From a virus (Duplodnaviria; Heunggongvirae; Uroviricota; Caudoviricetes), in IMG/VR virus record IMGVR_UViG_2802429219_000016: a DNA stretch of 31,583 nucleotides, one strand, 5' to 3'. The notes beneath the pieces are model-generated. The model ran no database searches. It had not been told where the DNA came from and saw nothing but the letters and a program-made list of their open reading frames with translations. The translations under genes and the position numbers were made by a program. Shown piece by piece: positions 1 to 8,750 of the stretch. Position 1 is the first letter of the stretch. Every line of letters begins with the position of its first letter.

Positions 1-525
1 TTATACAGCTTTCTTTACATCGTTTTCTCTTACAGGGAAATTATGTTCTTTGCCTTCATACTGAGACAAAATCTCTCTCACTTTTTCCGGTGGTAATGCC
101 TGAAGAGTTTGCAGGGTTTTCTGTTGCTCCACAGTAATCCCTAATGCCTCTAATGCCTTATCTTTACTGACAATTGTAGGCATAAGTCCTTTAATCCCTG
201 CTACACGAATGATCTCCACAGCTGCGGCCTGCTCATCTGGTGTTAAGAAGCTCATTGCATAAATTAGCCTCTCATCAACTGTATGGGCGATTGATGTATG
301 CACTGGTTTATCAGAAAGTGAGGCTCCTTTAATGGCCCTGCGTGTTTCTTCTGGCAGACTGTTGATGTGATACTCATAAGCGACACCTTTCCCACCGTGA
401 CGCTGACGTTTTACCCAATCTTCCGCCACAGCTTTCCTGGTAATGTTAGTCGCCAACTTTGGTACACCAGGCATCCCTTCCAGCTCTTTCGCATTAAACC
501 ATTCTTTGATTTCAAAAGACATCAT
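1..525 (-). CDS. c: Mu c-like lysogeny repressor (174 aa)
   Basis: Leftward ORF divergent from ner-A-B. N-terminus ([26 protein letters not shown]) is paralogous to the N-terminus of the transposase at 940 ([26 protein letters not shown]), as in Mu c/MuA. Stop codon is at window position 1-3. Confidence 0.8.
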   Translation of the reverse strand: MMSFEIKEWFNAKELEGMPGVPKLATNITRKAVAEDWVKRQRHGGKGVAYEYHINSLPEETRRAIKGASLSDKPVHTSIAHTVDERLIYAMSFLTPDEQAAAVEIIRVAGIKGLMPTIVSKDKALEALGITVEQQKTLQTLQALPPEKVREILSQYEGKEHNFPVRENDVKKAV

Positions 526-2966: not shown

Positions 2967-3926
2967 ATGAATATTTCCGATATTCGCGCAGGACTGCGCA
3001 CGCTTGTAGACAATGGAGAAACCACGCTGACACGCATCGCCAGTGAATCAGGCGTGGCCCTGAGCACAGTCAGTGGTTTTGTGAATGATAAATATAACGG
3101 CAACATGGAATCAGTCGGGCGCACACTGGAACGCTGGCTGGAAAACTATCACCGCGCAGAAGAACTGCCGGAACCCCCGCGTTTTGTGGAAACTGCAACA
3201 GCCCGTCAAATCTGGACAAGTATGCGTTTTGCTAATCTGACCGGAACCATTGCTGTTATCTGTGGCAATCCAGGAGTGGGTAAAAGCGAAGCAGCCCGTG
3301 AATTTTGTCGCACTAATAATAATGTCTGGATGATCACCATCGCGCCATCCCGTGCCAGTACGCTGGAATGTCTGACTGAACTTGCCGAAGAGTTGGGAAT
3401 GAATAATGCACCATGTCGCAAAGGGCCGCTTTCCCGTAATCTGCGTCGCCGCCTGAAAGGGACGCAGGGACTGGTCATTGTTGACGAAGCTGATCACCTT
3501 GACACCGAAGCGCTGGAAGAGCTCCGTCTGTTACAGGAGTCCGCCTGTATTGGTCTGGTTCTGATGGGGAATCACCGTGTTTATTCAAATATGACCGCTA
3601 ATGGCGACAGAACAATTGAGTTTGCCCGTCTGTTTTCCCGTATTGCAAAGCGCACAGCAATTAATAAAACCAAAGAAGACGATGTAAACGCAATTGCGGA
3701 TGCCTGGCAGATTACCGGGAAAAATGAACGGGAATTATTACAGCAGATTGCACAAACGCCTGGTGCGCTCCGCATTATGAATCAAACGCTGCGCCTTGCT
3801 GTTATGAATGCCTTCGGTAAAGGCGAACGTGTTAATGAGGATTATCTGCGTGAGGCTTACAAAGAGTTAGACCAGGACGTTGATGTTTCGATGCTGCTGG
3901 GTGTGCAAGGGGATGCTGAATCATGA
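2967..3926 (+). CDS. B: Mu B-like transposition ATPase / target DNA activator (319 aa)
   Basis: Walker A GNPGVGKS and Walker B LVIVDEAD; N-terminal HTH-like region; position after A. Confidence 0.9.
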
Positions 3927-4150
3927 TGTCACGGAATATCAAAATGGCAACGGAAGTAAAGACCTGGTTACAGGAGCGCGGCAGCCACGTCAACGAATCC
4001 TGGCTGGGCGTGGCCCGCCCGGTGCTTGAAATAACCTGCCCACCACCGGAGCTTGTCAGGAATGCTGTCAGGATTATGGAGCATAAATCCGGGGTTGCCC
4101 GTTCAGTATGGACGGCCCGTCTTAATGGTTGTCAGATTATCTGGCGTTAA
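3923..4150 (+). CDS. Small early protein at the Mu kil position (75 aa); function not recognised
   Basis: ATG overlaps B stop (ATGA); synteny with Mu kil only, no recognised motif. Confidence 0.4.
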
Positions 4151-4182
4151 TAACGGCTTATTTATTTGTGAGGAATAACAAA

Positions 4183-4446
4183 ATGGCAAAAGTCATTATC
4201 GAAATCAAAAATGTGACATCTGAAGTTAAAGGGCAGCATTTACGCACCAATGTTAACGTGGACCACAGTGCAGAACTGGATGGTGATGAATACACGCTTG
4301 CTGGTGCGATAGCGTTACTGGTTCTGGAAAAAAGCCGGGATATCGTTCGCGAGTCAGCCCATGAGGCCATTGAAATACTGAAAAATGACGGCGTCATCAC
4401 GGGTGGCGATGTCACAGAAACGACAGTTGAAGGAACACGTCACTGA
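4183..4446 (+). CDS. Hypothetical early protein (87 aa)
   Basis: ATG 4183 preceded by GAGGAA RBS; in-frame track ORF from 4129 uses a TTG and is less likely. Acidic small protein, no recognised domain. Confidence 0.4.
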   Translation: MAKVIIEIKNVTSEVKGQHLRTNVNVDHSAELDGDEYTLAGAIALLVLEKSRDIVRESAHEAIEILKNDGVITGGDVTETTVEGTRH

Positions 4447-4460
4447 AAGGAACGCTGACA

Positions 4461-4814
4461 ATGAACACCAGAATCAGAAACGAAATTCAGGCATTAATTC
4501 GAATTAAAATGCGTAATAACAATCCAGGAGAATTACGCGAGTTTATTTTCACCCGCAAAGTTTATGAGCATGGTGAAACTACTTATCTGATTACATTTGA
4601 CCATTACAGCATTTGTGCGCGTTATTGTGGCGAAAACATCTCTAATGCCATCACGTTTGGCGGTGCGTTTAACGAGGATTTATGGGAATACGTCATGGAC
4701 CGCGAATACATCAGCGCGTCAGACCCGGACGCACGGGAGCAGTGGCAGAATATCTGGCGCGATTACCGGCGAATGGCGAAAGGCTGGGCGCAGGGAACGT
4801 ATTCTTTGCCCTGA
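4461..4814 (+). CDS. Hypothetical early protein (117 aa)
   Basis: ORF with AAAGGA RBS 9 nt upstream; no recognised domain. Confidence 0.45.
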   Translation: MNTRIRNEIQALIRIKMRNNNPGELREFIFTRKVYEHGETTYLITFDHYSICARYCGENISNAITFGGAFNEDLWEYVMDREYISASDPDAREQWQNIWRDYRRMAKGWAQGTYSLP

Positions 4815-4887
4815 AAGCGGTTCAGTTATCGCTGCGGCATATTCCGGCATCACTGCGCGCCCCCTGTTGTACTGAGTGGTGACCGGA

Positions 4888-5175
4888 ATGATGTGTAAGC
4901 GTAAACGCTGGTCACGCGAAGACCGGGAATTTATCGAAGCCAGTGTCGGGAAAATGACCGTCGAGGAAATGGCGAAAAAACTGAACGTTGCCACAACTGC
5001 CCTCCGGGCACACGCCAGAAGGCACGGAATATCGTTGTGTGCATATCGAATCAGTGAGCACGACAAATATTTGTGTCGTGAACTTTATAAAGAAGGGGTG
5101 GCTATTCATGTGATAGCCCAAAAGATGGAATTAAGCAATCGTGCTGTATCCAGCATTGTATACAGCGAATATTAA
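4888..5175 (+). CDS. Putative DNA-binding protein with two tandem HTH-like segments (95 aa)
   Basis: Segments MTVEEMAKKLNVATTALRAHARRHGI and VAIHVIAQKMELSNRAVSSIVY look like helix-turn-helix units; ATG 4888 chosen over track GTG 4876. Confidence 0.4.
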   Translation: MMCKRKRWSREDREFIEASVGKMTVEEMAKKLNVATTALRAHARRHGISLCAYRISEHDKYLCRELYKEGVAIHVIAQKMELSNRAVSSIVYSEY

Positions 5176-5195
5176 TTAACAGGAGCTTTATTTAT

Positions 5196-5720
5196 ATGGC
5201 TAAACCAGCAAAACGAATCAAGAACGCCGCAGCGGCTTATGTTCCACAATCCCGCGATGCCGTGGTATGTGATATCCGCCGGATTGGGGACCTGCAACGC
5301 GAAGCGGCACGACTTGAAACAGAAATGAATGACGCTATCGCTGAGATTACGGAGAAATATGCCTCACAGATTGCGCCCCTTAAAACCAGTATCGAAACCC
5401 TTTCAAAAGGCGTTCAGGGATGGTGTGAAGCGAACCGTGACGAACTGACGAACGGCGGCAAGGTGAAGACGGCAAACCTGGTAACCGGCGATGTGTCATG
5501 GCGTCAGCGCCCACCATCGGTAAGTATTCGCGGTGTGGATGCGGTGATGGAAACACTGGAGCGTCTTGGCCTGCAACGCTTTATTCGCACGAAACAGGAA
5601 ATCAACAAGGAAGCGATTTTACTGGAACCGAAAGCAGTTGCGGGTGTTGCCGGAATTACGGTTAAGTCTGGAATTGAAGATTTTTCTATTATTCCGTTTG
5701 AACAGGAAGCTGGTATTTAA
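5196..5720 (+). CDS. gam: Gam host-nuclease inhibitor / DNA-end binding protein (174 aa)
   Basis: Near full-length match to Mu Gam as I recall it (MAKPAKRIK.AAAAYVPQ.RDAV...IGDLQREA.RLETEMNDAIAEITEK...WCEANRDELTNGGKVKTANLVTGDVSWR); AGGAG RBS at 5181. Confidence 0.9.
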   Translation: MAKPAKRIKNAAAAYVPQSRDAVVCDIRRIGDLQREAARLETEMNDAIAEITEKYASQIAPLKTSIETLSKGVQGWCEANRDELTNGGKVKTANLVTGDVSWRQRPPSVSIRGVDAVMETLERLGLQRFIRTKQEINKEAILLEPKAVAGVAGITVKSGIEDFSIIPFEQEAGI

Positions 5721-5818
5721 CACCACTACGAATATTTAATTAATTCCCTTTCTTTTAATTATGGCGCGATGCGTCAGGGGATTGCTCGCGCCTGAAACAG
5801 ACTACTAAGGAATAAAAA

Positions 5819-6361
5819 ATGGTTGATGCAAAAGTTCTGAACGGTGTCAGCACATTATTACGCACTTACGGGCGTCTGACCTGTGGCGTTCTGGCTGAAA
5901 AAATGAAGATGCCACCTTCCTCAATGGTGTATTTCCTGCGTGATGCGGTTGATGCCGGAGTTCTCACTGAATGTAACGGATTTTATGACGTTCCGCGCCC
6001 TCGTCCGACGCCGCCGGTAAGACGAAACGCAACAACGGAACACCCCGATGTTGATGATGCTCAATGGTGCGCGTTCCGCCGCTCTTTGCCCTGGCTGGAA
6101 GGCAACGCCATTCCGGCACTGGCAAAAGAATTTGCGACAGGCGTACTGACCTGCGAGTCGGTTTACATTGTTGCTGAAGTGGATGACGAGATGTGCAAAC
6201 AGGGGATGCCCCGTTTTGTGATGGCTTATATCGATATCCGGCTGGGTCGTTTTATTTGTGGCTCCAGTGGCTGGAATATCACCGACCACGTCCTGCGCTA
6301 TCTCATTCTTGATTATTCACCGGTTCCGGCGGAAACACAGGAAATCAGCGAGCATGATTAA
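5819..6361 (+). CDS. Hypothetical protein, possible N-terminal winged-HTH (180 aa)
   Basis: ORF with AAGGA RBS; N-terminal LLRTYGRLTCGVLAEKMKMPPSSMVYFLRDAVDAGVL resembles a wHTH; rest unrecognised. Confidence 0.45.
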   Translation: MVDAKVLNGVSTLLRTYGRLTCGVLAEKMKMPPSSMVYFLRDAVDAGVLTECNGFYDVPRPRPTPPVRRNATTEHPDVDDAQWCAFRRSLPWLEGNAIPALAKEFATGVLTCESVYIVAEVDDEMCKQGMPRFVMAYIDIRLGRFICGSSGWNITDHVLRYLILDYSPVPAETQEISEHD

Positions 6362-6551
6362 GTCAATTGGCTTTGTCCTGCTGGTTGGCACTTGCGGGAA
6401 TGATGCCTGTGATGCCATTCCGGTAACAGAAAAAATCTGGCCCACAGAGCAGGCATGTATGCAGGTGATGGAGCGCATACAAAAACGTTATCCCAGTGAA
6501 ATCTTTTATTGCGAAGAGGTATTAAGAAATGAAAATACAGATGATTACTGA
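6354..6551 (+). CDS. Small Cys-containing protein with N-terminal hydrophobic signal/anchor (65 aa)
   Basis: MIKSIGFVLLVGTCGNDAC...: hydrophobic N-terminus followed by Cys (lipobox-like but non-canonical); four Cys in mature part; ATG overlaps upstream stop. Confidence 0.4.
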   Translation: MIKSIGFVLLVGTCGNDACDAIPVTEKIWPTEQACMQVMERIQKRYPSEIFYCEEVLRNENTDDY

Positions 6552-6864
6552 TGCTGATTTAATGGCTGCAACCTTAATTTCCAGTGGCATGTCAGAACAA
6601 AAGGTAAATGATTTCCTGGATAATGTCGTATACCAGCACTATGAGCAGGCCAGAGAAAATTTAATTTCAGAAAAGCGCACGATGATTGCTGAATCATTAA
6701 GCCCTGCATGGATTATCGAAGAGTTGCGGGGAATCATTGCCAGTCAGGATAAAGTGGCGGCAGTTGCCGCCCTCGATGTGCTACAGCGAATGAGTAAAGA
6801 GTTATTCAACACTGAATTAATTTTTAAATCCGGGGGACATAATGAGCCGCACATCCCTGATTAA
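6529..6864 (+). CDS. Hypothetical early protein (111 aa)
   Basis: ORF with GAGG RBS; no recognised domain. Confidence 0.45.
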   Translation: MKIQMITDADLMAATLISSGMSEQKVNDFLDNVVYQHYEQARENLISEKRTMIAESLSPAWIIEELRGIIASQDKVAAVAALDVLQRMSKELFNTELIFKSGGHNEPHIPD

Positions 6865-7393
6865 ATTAATTCATGTTGCCCGTCGGGAGTTGCAACTCGA
6901 CGATGACACTTACCGAGCTTTTCTGGTGCAGTGCACGGGCAAAACCAGTTGCCGCGAGCTGTCCGTTGCACAACTGGAACAGGTGCTCGATGCCATGAAA
7001 GAGCGCGGTTTTAAAAAGCAGAAAAAACATCCCCGCCGTCGCTTTAAGGGGCATGTCACACCACGCGAGAAGATTTACAAAATCTGGCAGCAGATGTTTC
7101 TTGACGGTTTCGTCTCCGATATCAGCGACGCTGCGCTGGACAAATACGTTGAGCGCCTGACAGCCAGACGTAATGGCGGACAGGGTGTTTCCACGCTGGC
7201 ATGGTGTCACGGGGAATCGTTGCAGATTGTGCTCGAAACGCTCAAACAGTGGCATATGCGCTGCATCCGGGAAGCCTTTGCCCGACATGGCGTGCCTTTA
7301 CCTGTGAGCGAAACCGGGCGGGAGCTGCGCGGCTATGATGCACTGACCAGTGCATATGCCCGCGCACGAAACAGCGGGAGAATTGCTGTATGA
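6842..7393 (+). CDS. gemA: GemA-like (Mu gp16 family) protein (183 aa)
   Basis: Position immediately upstream of and overlapping mor; size and basic composition consistent with Mu GemA/gp16 family (recollection). Confidence 0.65.
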   Translation: MSRTSLIKLIHVARRELQLDDDTYRAFLVQCTGKTSCRELSVAQLEQVLDAMKERGFKKQKKHPRRRFKGHVTPREKIYKIWQQMFLDGFVSDISDAALDKYVERLTARRNGGQGVSTLAWCHGESLQIVLETLKQWHMRCIREAFARHGVPLPVSETGRELRGYDALTSAYARARNSGRIAV

Positions 7394-7839
7394 AACAGAT
7401 GAAAGAGCAGGATTTGTTCGAAGACCTTCGGGACGACAGCGTTCTGGAATATCTTCATGATTACCAGGAAAACACCGCTTATCCGGCGTTACTTTCTGAA
7501 CTGAACGCACTGCTGCGTAAAGAGCTGGCCCGGATTGGAGCAGACCCTGCCCATTCCCTTGAGCTGGTTGTGGCGATTTGTCGCCATATCGGCGGGATGC
7601 AGGTTTATGTTCCGAGGGGGAATATTCTGGAGAATCTTGTCCGGGATATGCGTATCTGGCGTGATTTTAACGGCCATAATATTCCTGAACTGGTTCAGCG
7701 TTACGGGGTGACGTATAAAACCGTCTACAAGGCCATCAAACGGATGCGACGTCTGGAGCGTAATAAATACCAGCCGGATTTGTTTTACCCCTCCCCGAAC
7801 CTGCCTCACCCCGTTCGTCGCCCACCACGACGCCCTTAA
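7390..7839 (+). CDS. mor: Mor/C-family transcription activator (149 aa)
   Basis: DLFEDLRDDSVLEYL...ALLSELN.LLR.ELARIGADPAHSLELVVAICRHIGGMQVYVPRG...RDMRIW.DFNG.N..EL..RYGVTYKTVYKAIKRMRRL closely parallels Mu Mor including the C-terminal HTH. Confidence 0.8.
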   Translation: MKQMKEQDLFEDLRDDSVLEYLHDYQENTAYPALLSELNALLRKELARIGADPAHSLELVVAICRHIGGMQVYVPRGNILENLVRDMRIWRDFNGHNIPELVQRYGVTYKTVYKAIKRMRRLERNKYQPDLFYPSPNLPHPVRRPPRRP

Positions 7840-7844
7840 TCAAT

Positions 7845-7869
7845 GAAGCCGGTAAATCCGGCTTTTTTT
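7845..7869 (+). terminator. Intrinsic terminator-like hairpin plus T7 run downstream of mor
   Basis: GAAGCCGG-TAAAT-CCGGCTTTTTTT: 6-8 bp GC stem, 5-nt loop, seven T. Part of a 40-bp element repeated at 15561-15600. Confidence 0.5.
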
Positions 7870-7924: not shown

Positions 7925-8521
7925 ATGGAAAATCAAAAATTCTCCCCGGCCTTTGAACATGCGCTGAATTTTATTCTGCGTCCTGATATCGAAGGCGGCT
8001 ATGTCAATGACCCCACTGACAGCGGCGGCGAAACAAAATACGGCATTTCTGACCGCCGCGACGGTGTGATTGACGGCAAAACCGATGTCAACGGCGACGG
8101 CAAACCGGATACCCGCATTAAGGATTTGACCCGCGAACAGGTTGCGCAGATTTACTGGCGCGATTACTGGCTGCTTGCCGGGTGTGATCAGTGGCCTGAT
8201 GGTGTGGCGCTCTTTGTGTTTGATGCGGCTGTTCAGCATGGCGTGGAGCAAGCCGTCAAGTTTTTACAGGAAGCCGCTGATGTGTCTGCCGATGGCATCA
8301 TCGGCCCGCGTACCCGCAAGGCTGTGAGCCTGTCCACCCCGGACTGGCTGCTGTCCCGCTGCATTGTTCGCCGTTGCCGCTTTTATGCGGGCCTCATCAA
8401 ATCAAAACCCGCTCGTGGCAAATACCTGAACGGCTGGTTTAACCGCATGGAAGAACTGACCGACGCCTGTCTGGAAATTATCGATACCCCTCTGGGCATC
8501 ATGTCCGCCACGCGGGGGTGA
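7925..8521 (+). CDS. Endolysin, GH108-type lysozyme with C-terminal peptidoglycan-binding region (198 aa)
   Basis: EGGYVNDPTDSGGETKYGIS catalytic motif typical of GH108; C-terminal ADGIIGPRTRKAV fits PG-binding domain; no N-terminal TM segment, so apparently not a SAR endolysin. Confidence 0.75.
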   Translation: MENQKFSPAFEHALNFILRPDIEGGYVNDPTDSGGETKYGISDRRDGVIDGKTDVNGDGKPDTRIKDLTREQVAQIYWRDYWLLAGCDQWPDGVALFVFDAAVQHGVEQAVKFLQEAADVSADGIIGPRTRKAVSLSTPDWLLSRCIVRRCRFYAGLIKSKPARGKYLNGWFNRMEELTDACLEIIDTPLGIMSATRG

Positions 8522-8522
8522 T

Positions 8523-8750
8523 ATGGGCAAAGGCTGGGATGCCTCACTGAAAGCCGGGCGGCGTGACCGCCTGCGCCAGGAGGTTCTGCACCGCATGGCC
8601 GGAGGTCCGCCCCCGAAACCGCTGGACTATACCGGCCATGATGGCACACACGCCAGCTACTACATGCGTGGCTGGAACTCCGTGGATACACGGGACATTT
8701 TCTGGCAGTGCCAGAAGTACAAGGAAAAACTCAATGCACAGAATGAATAG
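8523..8750 (+). CDS. Hypothetical protein in lysis module (75 aa)
   Basis: ATG 2 nt after endolysin stop; no recognised domain. Confidence 0.4.
   Translation: MGKGWDASLKAGRRDRLRQEVLHRMAGGPPPKPLDYTGHDGTHASYYMRGWNSVDTRDIFWQCQKYKEKLNAQNE

Follow-up and report, generated by a model that had tools for sequence, protein, structure and literature searches.

The stretch of DNA analysed here (hereafter the window) is the 31,583-nt IMG/VR record IMGVR_UViG_2802429219_000016 (Caudoviricetes), in which a block of small early genes (positions 3923-6864, plus strand) lies between the genes B (2967-3926) and gemA (6842-7393). The block holds eight co-directional open reading frames (ORFs), namely orthologues of the phage Mu genes kil, gp7, gp8, gp9, gam and gp11 followed by two genes designated here o65 and o111, and the sizes given for them by a first-pass annotation made without database searches (75, 87, 117, 95, 174, 180, 65, and 111 aa) were confirmed. 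Together these ORFs occupy 92% of the block, with adjacent genes either overlapping by 4-23 nt or separated by 14-98 nt, and Shine-Dalgarno-like sequences stand ahead of most of the start codons. All eight matched PHROG families (E-values of about 1e-28 to 1e-102). The pairwise ratio of nonsynonymous to synonymous substitution rates (dN/dS) against orthologues in related loci was 0.09-0.25 for seven of them, pointing to purifying selection; the truncated 117-aa gp8 ORF yielded no usable pairs. The eight ORFs exceed chance ORFs, and the antisense (minus-strand) ORFs of the block, for which no family matches were obtained, were dismissed.

We interpret the block as the semi-essential early (SE) region of an Escherichia-type transposable prophage in the Mu family, a reading to which we assign a probability of roughly 0.85. 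The SE region has been known since the 1980s and a function is still missing for most of its genes. In Mu it has been described as a set of 14 ORFs of largely unknown function that lie on the long early transcript and are toxic to the host when expressed (PMC3325207; PMC3820752), and according to the literature plaques can be formed without the region, growth is better with it, and early transcription proceeds from the promoter Pe. The block lies between B and gemA/mor on the same strand as these genes and includes orthologues of both kil and gam. With the Mu SE region, taken as kil/gp5 to gp15 (NC_000929, 4315-8162), it shares the position between B and gemA, the strand, the gene order, six orthologous genes (kil, gp7, gp8, gp9, gam, and gp11; 72-93% protein identity) and the same conserved 98-nt spacer between gam and gp11, at a DNA identity of about 85% over 73% of the block; across Mu, D108, SfMu, and the Yersinia Mu-like phages the corresponding values were 84-86% over about 73% of its length. 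Unlike the Mu region, the block lacks gp6 and gp12-gp15, carries o65 and o111 instead, and has a truncated gp8.

Six of the eight genes are thus direct Mu orthologues and the other two are swappable, recurrent cassette genes, so that the block is a typical example of a region long known but still poorly understood, and adds no new kind of element. The first-pass annotation had rightly placed a Mu-type accessory early region here and had rightly described most of its products as lacking an assigned function; its statement that only Gam is recognisable was incorrect, since Kil (85% identical to its Mu counterpart) and the orthologues of gp7, gp8, gp9, and gp11 (72-89%) can be recognised as well. 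Six ORFs hence correspond to known early proteins, although these Mu orthologues are themselves largely uncharacterised, whereas o65 and o111 do not. No functional study of Mu gp7, gp8, gp9, gp11, DUF5420 or the Mup locus tags was found in the literature. The AT-richness noted earlier holds in comparison with the late genes (G+C content of 47.8% in the block versus 56.8%) but is shared by the early operon as a whole (49.2%), and the low G+C content therefore belongs to the early/late mosaic and not to the block alone.

The first gene of the block, kil (3923-4150, 75 aa), overlaps the B stop codon with its start by 4 nt and encodes a basic protein (isoelectric point, pI, 10.3) that is 85% identical to Mu Kil over 74 aa, matches phrog_2743 (‘Kil protein’, E-value 1.9e-39) and has the low dN/dS of 0.09. 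By orthology this product is assigned as the Mu host-killing protein that rounds E. coli; cells have been described as turning spherical upon expression of Mu kil (Waggoner 1989, as cited in PMC3961180). The second gene, gp7 (E6 in Mu; 4183-4446, 87 aa from an ATG, or 105 aa from an alternative TTG at 4129), encodes an acidic protein (pI 4.9) with 72% identity to Mu gp7 and a match to phrog_10252 (E-value 1e-39). In related loci its place is taken by a gene designated here U6, and a profile comparison of gp7 with U6 (hhalign) gave a probability of 81% and an E-value of 1.3e-5, with identical first residues; given this homology, gp7 and U6 are alleles of a single core gene that have diverged deeply. 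The N-terminus is invariant, whereas codons 10-40 are variable, with ratios of nonsynonymous to synonymous polymorphism (pN/pS) of 0.45-0.74. An RraB-like resemblance (PF06877) of gp7/U6 stayed below threshold and is no more than a weak lead: the best score was 16.9 bits against a cut-off of 23.3 (E-value 0.0098) and came from three of the seven U6 alleles only; the gp7 of the window gave no match to this model.

The third gene, gp8 (E7 in Mu; 4461-4814, 117 aa), is 77% identical to Mu gp8 over 115 aa. In comparison with Mu and with a related locus (L047) it carries a 4-nt deletion after position 4805, by which a TGA codon arises at 4812-4814, and because of this deletion the product has 117 aa instead of 139. 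A further 1-nt deletion after position 4859, identified against the same two sequences, lies downstream of the gp8 stop codon. A remnant of the C-terminal tail persists out of frame in 4815-4875 and can still be recognised in the ORF at 4682-4882, which matches phrog_3690 positions 117-136. The truncation may reflect early prophage decay or a sequencing error.

The fourth gene, gp9 (E8 in Mu; 4888-5175, 95 aa from an ATG, or 99 aa from an alternative GTG at 4876), encodes a basic protein that is 89% identical to Mu gp9 and matches phrog_323 (‘transcriptional regulator, D5-like’, E-value 8e-28). Sub-threshold Pfam matches to helix-turn-helix (HTH) models at residues 6-45 and 69-94 outline two tandem HTH segments, and gp9 is therefore probably DNA-binding. 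The matches of gp9 to Cbp1 and sigma-70 were likewise below threshold and these identities were rejected. The fifth gene, gam (5196-5720, 174 aa), encodes a protein that is 93% identical to Mu Gam and covers positions 7-148 of the 149 in the Pfam model PF07352 (E-value 1.8e-43; 148.4 bits, cut-off 28.3). Mu-type Gam is a Ku-like protein that binds double-stranded DNA ends, keeps RecBCD off linear DNA and can license Gabija (PMC12407980). The sixth gene, gp11 (5819-6361, 180 aa), shows 86% identity to Mu gp11 over 177 aa and matches the Pfam model PF25754 (Gp11_C) over its full length (positions 1-78 of 78; E-value 4e-39; 133.4 bits, cut-off 27). Its predicted architecture comprises an N-terminal winged-helix-like domain (residues ~1-57), a Pro/Arg-rich linker and the C-terminal Gp11_C beta domain. 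The AlphaFold2 model of gp11, built with 30 homologues, had a mean predicted local distance difference test score (pLDDT) of 55 and is readable only as an N-terminal winged-helix resemblance, and no structural match was listed for its C-terminal domain.

Between gam and gp11 lies a 98-nt intergenic element (5721-5818, plus strand) with an AT-rich tract and a GC hairpin (5763-5792) that lacks a T-run. This spacer is near-invariant in 28 distinct loci, independent of the gene that follows it, and sequence mosaicism sets in directly downstream. Its predicted stability relative to shuffled sequences was not significant (whole-segment z-score -1.36). The spacer may serve in RNA processing or stability, or a protein may bind to it. 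No Rfam family was matched in the first 9 kb of the window.

In order to delimit conserved and variable parts, 44 loci from IMG/VR, E. coli genomes, Mu, and SfMu were compared, all with a Gam at least 90% identical to that of the window or of Mu. They displayed 34 gene orders, and the region is thus variable among relatives. The genes kil, gp9, and gam were present in all 44 loci, gp11 in 40 and gp8 in 38, while gp7 (17 loci) and U6 (27 loci) never occurred together and jointly accounted for all 44. Other genes came and went: gp6 was present in some loci and absent in others, o65 was found in 18 of the 44 and was mutually exclusive with gp12, and the interval between gp11 and gemA held varying mixes of gp12, gp13, o65, U16, o111, gp14, and rarer ORFs, none of which has a known function. 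The region hence consists of a conserved core (kil, gp7/U6, gp8, gp9, gam, and gp11) and two swap-prone slots, the first being the gp7/U6 allele pair and the second the cassette site between gp11 and gemA. U16 is an alternative 120-aa cassette protein (loci L004, L005, L044, and L046) whose C-terminus (VLRDENTDDY) closely resembles that of o65 (VLRNENTDDY; window 6516-6551), and this stretch overlaps the start of o111. The shared end has the look of a recombination junction and suggests that cassettes are exchanged at conserved gene junctions.

The two cassette genes of the window stand where Mu has gp12-gp15 and recur in other Mu-like prophages of E. coli and Salmonella. Their G+C content (42.4% in o65, 42% for o65 and o111 together) is the lowest of the operon, and they are flanked by genes of 52-54%. 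Large protein searches with both returned only unnamed close relatives.

The first of them, o65 (6354-6551, 65 aa from an ATG, or 97 aa from an alternative GTG at 6258), overlaps the gp11 stop codon with its start by 8 nt, matches phrog_16556 (E-value 6e-28), has a dN/dS of 0.15 and gave no blastp match among the Mu proteins. It encodes an acidic mini-protein with a hydrophobic leader (MIKSIGFVLLVGT) followed by CGNDACDA and a conserved IPVTE...C...C core. A HMMER scan of 1.84 billion representative proteins yielded 39 family members, which, except for the three weakest and repetitive matches, are stand-alone proteins of 39-102 aa. Their alignment runs from an N-terminal hydrophobic stretch through a Cys-containing motif to a [LIM]PV[ST]E core with two well-conserved cysteines. 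Homologues also occur between gam and gemA in Mu-like prophages of Brenneria and Symbiopectobacterium. Outside the Mu-like phages, o65 homologues sharing the leader and the cysteine pattern (39-56% identity) were found in temperate phages that are not transposable and in which the neighbours are not Mu genes, including Aeromonas phage pAEv1818 (gp14), Yersinia phage vB_YenM_30.14 (gp008), and Hafnia phages; in the loci L034 and L035, from non-transposable phages, they lie at 3501-3686 and 3495-3665, respectively. There they are small genes inside early recombination or accessory operons: in pAEv1818 the homologue lies between RecT and xis-int in a RecT/exonuclease neighbourhood, and in vB_YenM_30.14 it is part of an accessory operon, flanked by a gene annotated as polyphosphate kinase and a homologue of DNA polymerase III theta, and a Lar gene and methyltransferase genes lie nearby.

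From the family alignment, o65 is probably an exported protein that is cleaved or lipidated and carries one disulfide. At the very N-terminus, hydropathy over nine residues peaks at 2.2-3.3, as is typical of the h-region of a signal peptide, and such a region is present in the window protein (maximum 2.4). Nine relatives have a canonical lipobox at the same position, and six members lack C14 and C19 yet retain C35 and C53, three of the six having small residues at -3 and -1 directly before the core; the window protein has C and A at -3/-1 ahead of IPVTE. Export is called into question by the sequence VGTC of the window protein, which is non-canonical with respect to the lipobox [LVI][ASTVI][GAS]C, by the absence of a positively charged n-region from most leaders of the family, and by the retention of C14 and C19 in about 80% of the members, which leaves room for a cytoplasmic four-cysteine metal site. 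Owing to the non-canonical box and the leaders mostly without a basic n-region, the live rival is that o65 is a cytoplasmic four-cysteine metal-binding mini-protein akin to the zinc-ribbon proteins gp6 and gp13 of neighbouring Mu slots. We consider this possible, and clearly less likely than export. It would account for the four cysteines of the window protein (C14, C19, C35, and C53), for their conservation (C14/C19 in 28-29 and C35 in 33 of 36 relatives), for the short leaders and for the commonness of Cys-rich, zinc-ribbon-like proteins such as gp6 and gp13 in the SE region, but it fits poorly with the members that dispense with C14/C19, with the lipobox found at exactly this position and with the h-region-like hydropathy, and the zinc protein idea was downgraded after the wider family alignment. 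The gp6 and gp13 proteins of Mu relatives (loci L001, L060, and others) contain many cysteines, with CxxC pairs that look zinc-ribbon-like, and gp13 gave sub-threshold matches to DnaJ CXXCXGXG and rubredoxin-type models.

The second cassette gene, o111 (6529-6864, 111 aa), overlaps o65 and gemA by 23 nt each, and no Mu counterpart was found for it. Its product is acidic and all-helical in the structure model, with four helices at low tertiary confidence and no informative fold match. All its close homologues come from Escherichia and Salmonella; others, at about 40% identity, were found in SfMu (SfMu_14) and in Yersinia Mu-like phages. A match to GpsB (E-value 3e-4; 21 bits versus a cut-off of 91) was sub-threshold and the identity was rejected. 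In Shigella phage SfMu and in the Yersinia phages vB_YpM_3/5/6/23 the o111 homologue occupies the same slot between gp11 and gemA alongside the core early genes of Mu; unlike the window, these phages keep gp12, gp13, and gp14 and lack o65.

No plus-strand promoter-like or terminator-like site was detected by consensus scan in 3800-7840, and the first terminator-like site on this strand in the pattern scan was a hairpin with a T-run at 7845-7865, directly after mor (7390-7839; Pfam Mor, E-value 4e-30; 63% identical to the Mu protein). This pattern suggests read-through from the early promoter, as in Mu. The early operon would accordingly extend from an early promoter upstream of ner to the terminator after mor, with the block as an internal part, and gemA (Pfam GemA, E-value 1e-32; 81% identical to the Mu protein) and mor form its conserved distal end. 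Since the coding strand of the block shows neither a promoter nor a terminator, its products would be expected within the first minutes after induction or infection, alongside the transposase A and B. Among them, gp9 with its two HTH motifs and gp11 with its winged helix and Gp11_C domain would bind to DNA and modulate DNA transactions of the phage or the host, roles of the kind that genetic mapping in Mu has assigned to arm, cim, and sot. The gp7/U6 product would be a small acidic protein that binds a variable partner through its hypervariable middle. The cassettes o65 and o111 would have replaced Mu gp12-gp15 through recombination at conserved gene junctions; o65 would most likely be an exported mini-protein of the signal-peptide or lipoprotein-like type, with a single disulfide, that reaches the cell envelope and there might act on it or keep out other phages, and o111 would be a cytoplasmic acidic helical protein that probably acts by binding another protein.

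Several points weigh against the assignment of the block as a working SE region. Its transcription, dispensability and phenotype are predictions from sequence, promoters and terminators were scanned for by consensus match only, and the functions proposed for gp7, gp8, gp9, gp11, o65, and o111 derive from composition, weak motif matches and structure models of low confidence (pLDDT of 55 and 68). The frameshift that truncates gp8 furthermore implies that at least one gene may be decaying.

The first-pass annotation had pointed to anti-restriction or anti-defence proteins as possible contents of the block. In its strong form this would make the block an anti-defence island, in which the variable ORFs (gp7/U6, o65, and o111) inhibit host restriction or immunity and are exchanged in an arms race, which we consider unlikely. 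Gam itself counters RecBCD, the gene order is strongly mosaic (34 architectures in 44 loci), gp7, o65, and o111 are small and acidic (pI 4.4-4.9), the gp7/U6 alleles are deeply diverged with a pN/pS of up to 0.74 in the variable segment, and the o65 homologue of a Yersinia phage lies two genes from a Lar restriction-alleviation gene and methyltransferase genes. Yet the variability is limited to two slots while most genes form a conserved core under purifying selection, pN/pS never exceeds 1, and o65, if exported, would not meet cytoplasmic immune proteins. No anti-restriction, anti-CRISPR or anti-defence family was matched by the seven non-Gam ORFs in Pfam, NCBIfam, PHROGs, and the PDB sequences, which are general libraries and not a dedicated one. 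The PADLOC and NCBIfam scans of the block ORFs yielded nothing usable, the only PADLOC matches being two marginal HTH-type ones for gp9 (E-values 1e-3 and 5e-3). A search of the PDB sequences with the seven non-Gam ORFs joined by GGGGS linkers matched only the linkers of artificial constructs, and these ORFs thus have no real relative with a solved structure there. The earlier suggestion, finding no direct support in Pfam, NCBIfam, PHROGs, PADLOC or the PDB sequences, stays a reasonable but generic guess.

Equally speculative, and doubtful on present evidence, is the idea that the two variable slots are exchange points for factors that handle competitors. The o65 product would then represent a new family of exported disulfide mini-proteins (about 44 residues once mature) that unrelated temperate phages produce early in order to change the envelope or prevent superinfection, and gp7/U6 and o111 would inhibit variable host immune or housekeeping proteins.

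That the small ORFs are decaying or non-functional remnants of a defective prophage without a current role is very improbable: although gp8 is truncated and carries the 4-nt and 1-nt deletions, and copies of gp7 and o65 with frameshifts were found in other genomes, this explanation conflicts with the low dN/dS of seven of the eight ORFs against many orthologues, with the Shine-Dalgarno-like sequences at the starts and the coupled overlaps, and with the presence of the same genes intact in dozens of loci.

With the SE region as the preferred reading, the locus comparison sharpens where to look, through a map that separates core from slots, the recognition of gp7 and U6 as alleles, the truncation of gp8 and the hypothesis of o65 export, and it flags o65 as a small, probably exported protein that non-Mu phages also have. 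The core and slot genes constitute cheap and specific targets for expression screens of toxicity, exclusion, and counter-defence.

The closest complete E. coli genome was that of strain STEC383 (NZ_CP091026), which aligned to the opening 9 kb of the window with 96% identity over 94%; related Mu-like prophages were also found in E. coli FDAARGOS_943 (NZ_CP065615) and 06-00048 (NZ_CP015229), and in these E. coli relatives the ORFs in question are annotated as ‘hypothetical protein’. One IMG/VR locus (L052) had a gene order identical to that of the window (kil, gp7, gp8, gp9, gam, gp11, o65, and o111). No identical copy of the block was present among the complete E. coli RefSeq genomes, in which the best matches were mosaic, with 89-97% identity in 2-4 pieces.

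The Mu-type left end that opens the window comprises the repressor gene c (1-525, minus strand), ner (711-932) and the gene of transposase A (940-2928), followed by B. In contrast to this early part, the late half of the prophage does not resemble Mu in its DNA sequence, and mor is followed directly by a GH108 lysin gene, without C. The late region (7900-31583) showed no megablast similarity to Mu and has a G+C content of 57% versus 49% in the early operon; the prophage is therefore a hybrid in which a Mu-type early module is joined to a late module of another kind. Only the tail-fibre end of the late region matched known phages (97% to phiP27 and 94% to Rac-SA53). The GH108-type lysin ORF (7925-8521) begins right after the terminator-like hairpin at 7845-7865, and neither Mu gp18-gp20 nor the late activator C has a counterpart between mor and this ORF. 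An ORF that is 70% identical to Mu gp18 follows the lysin ORF at 8523-8750.

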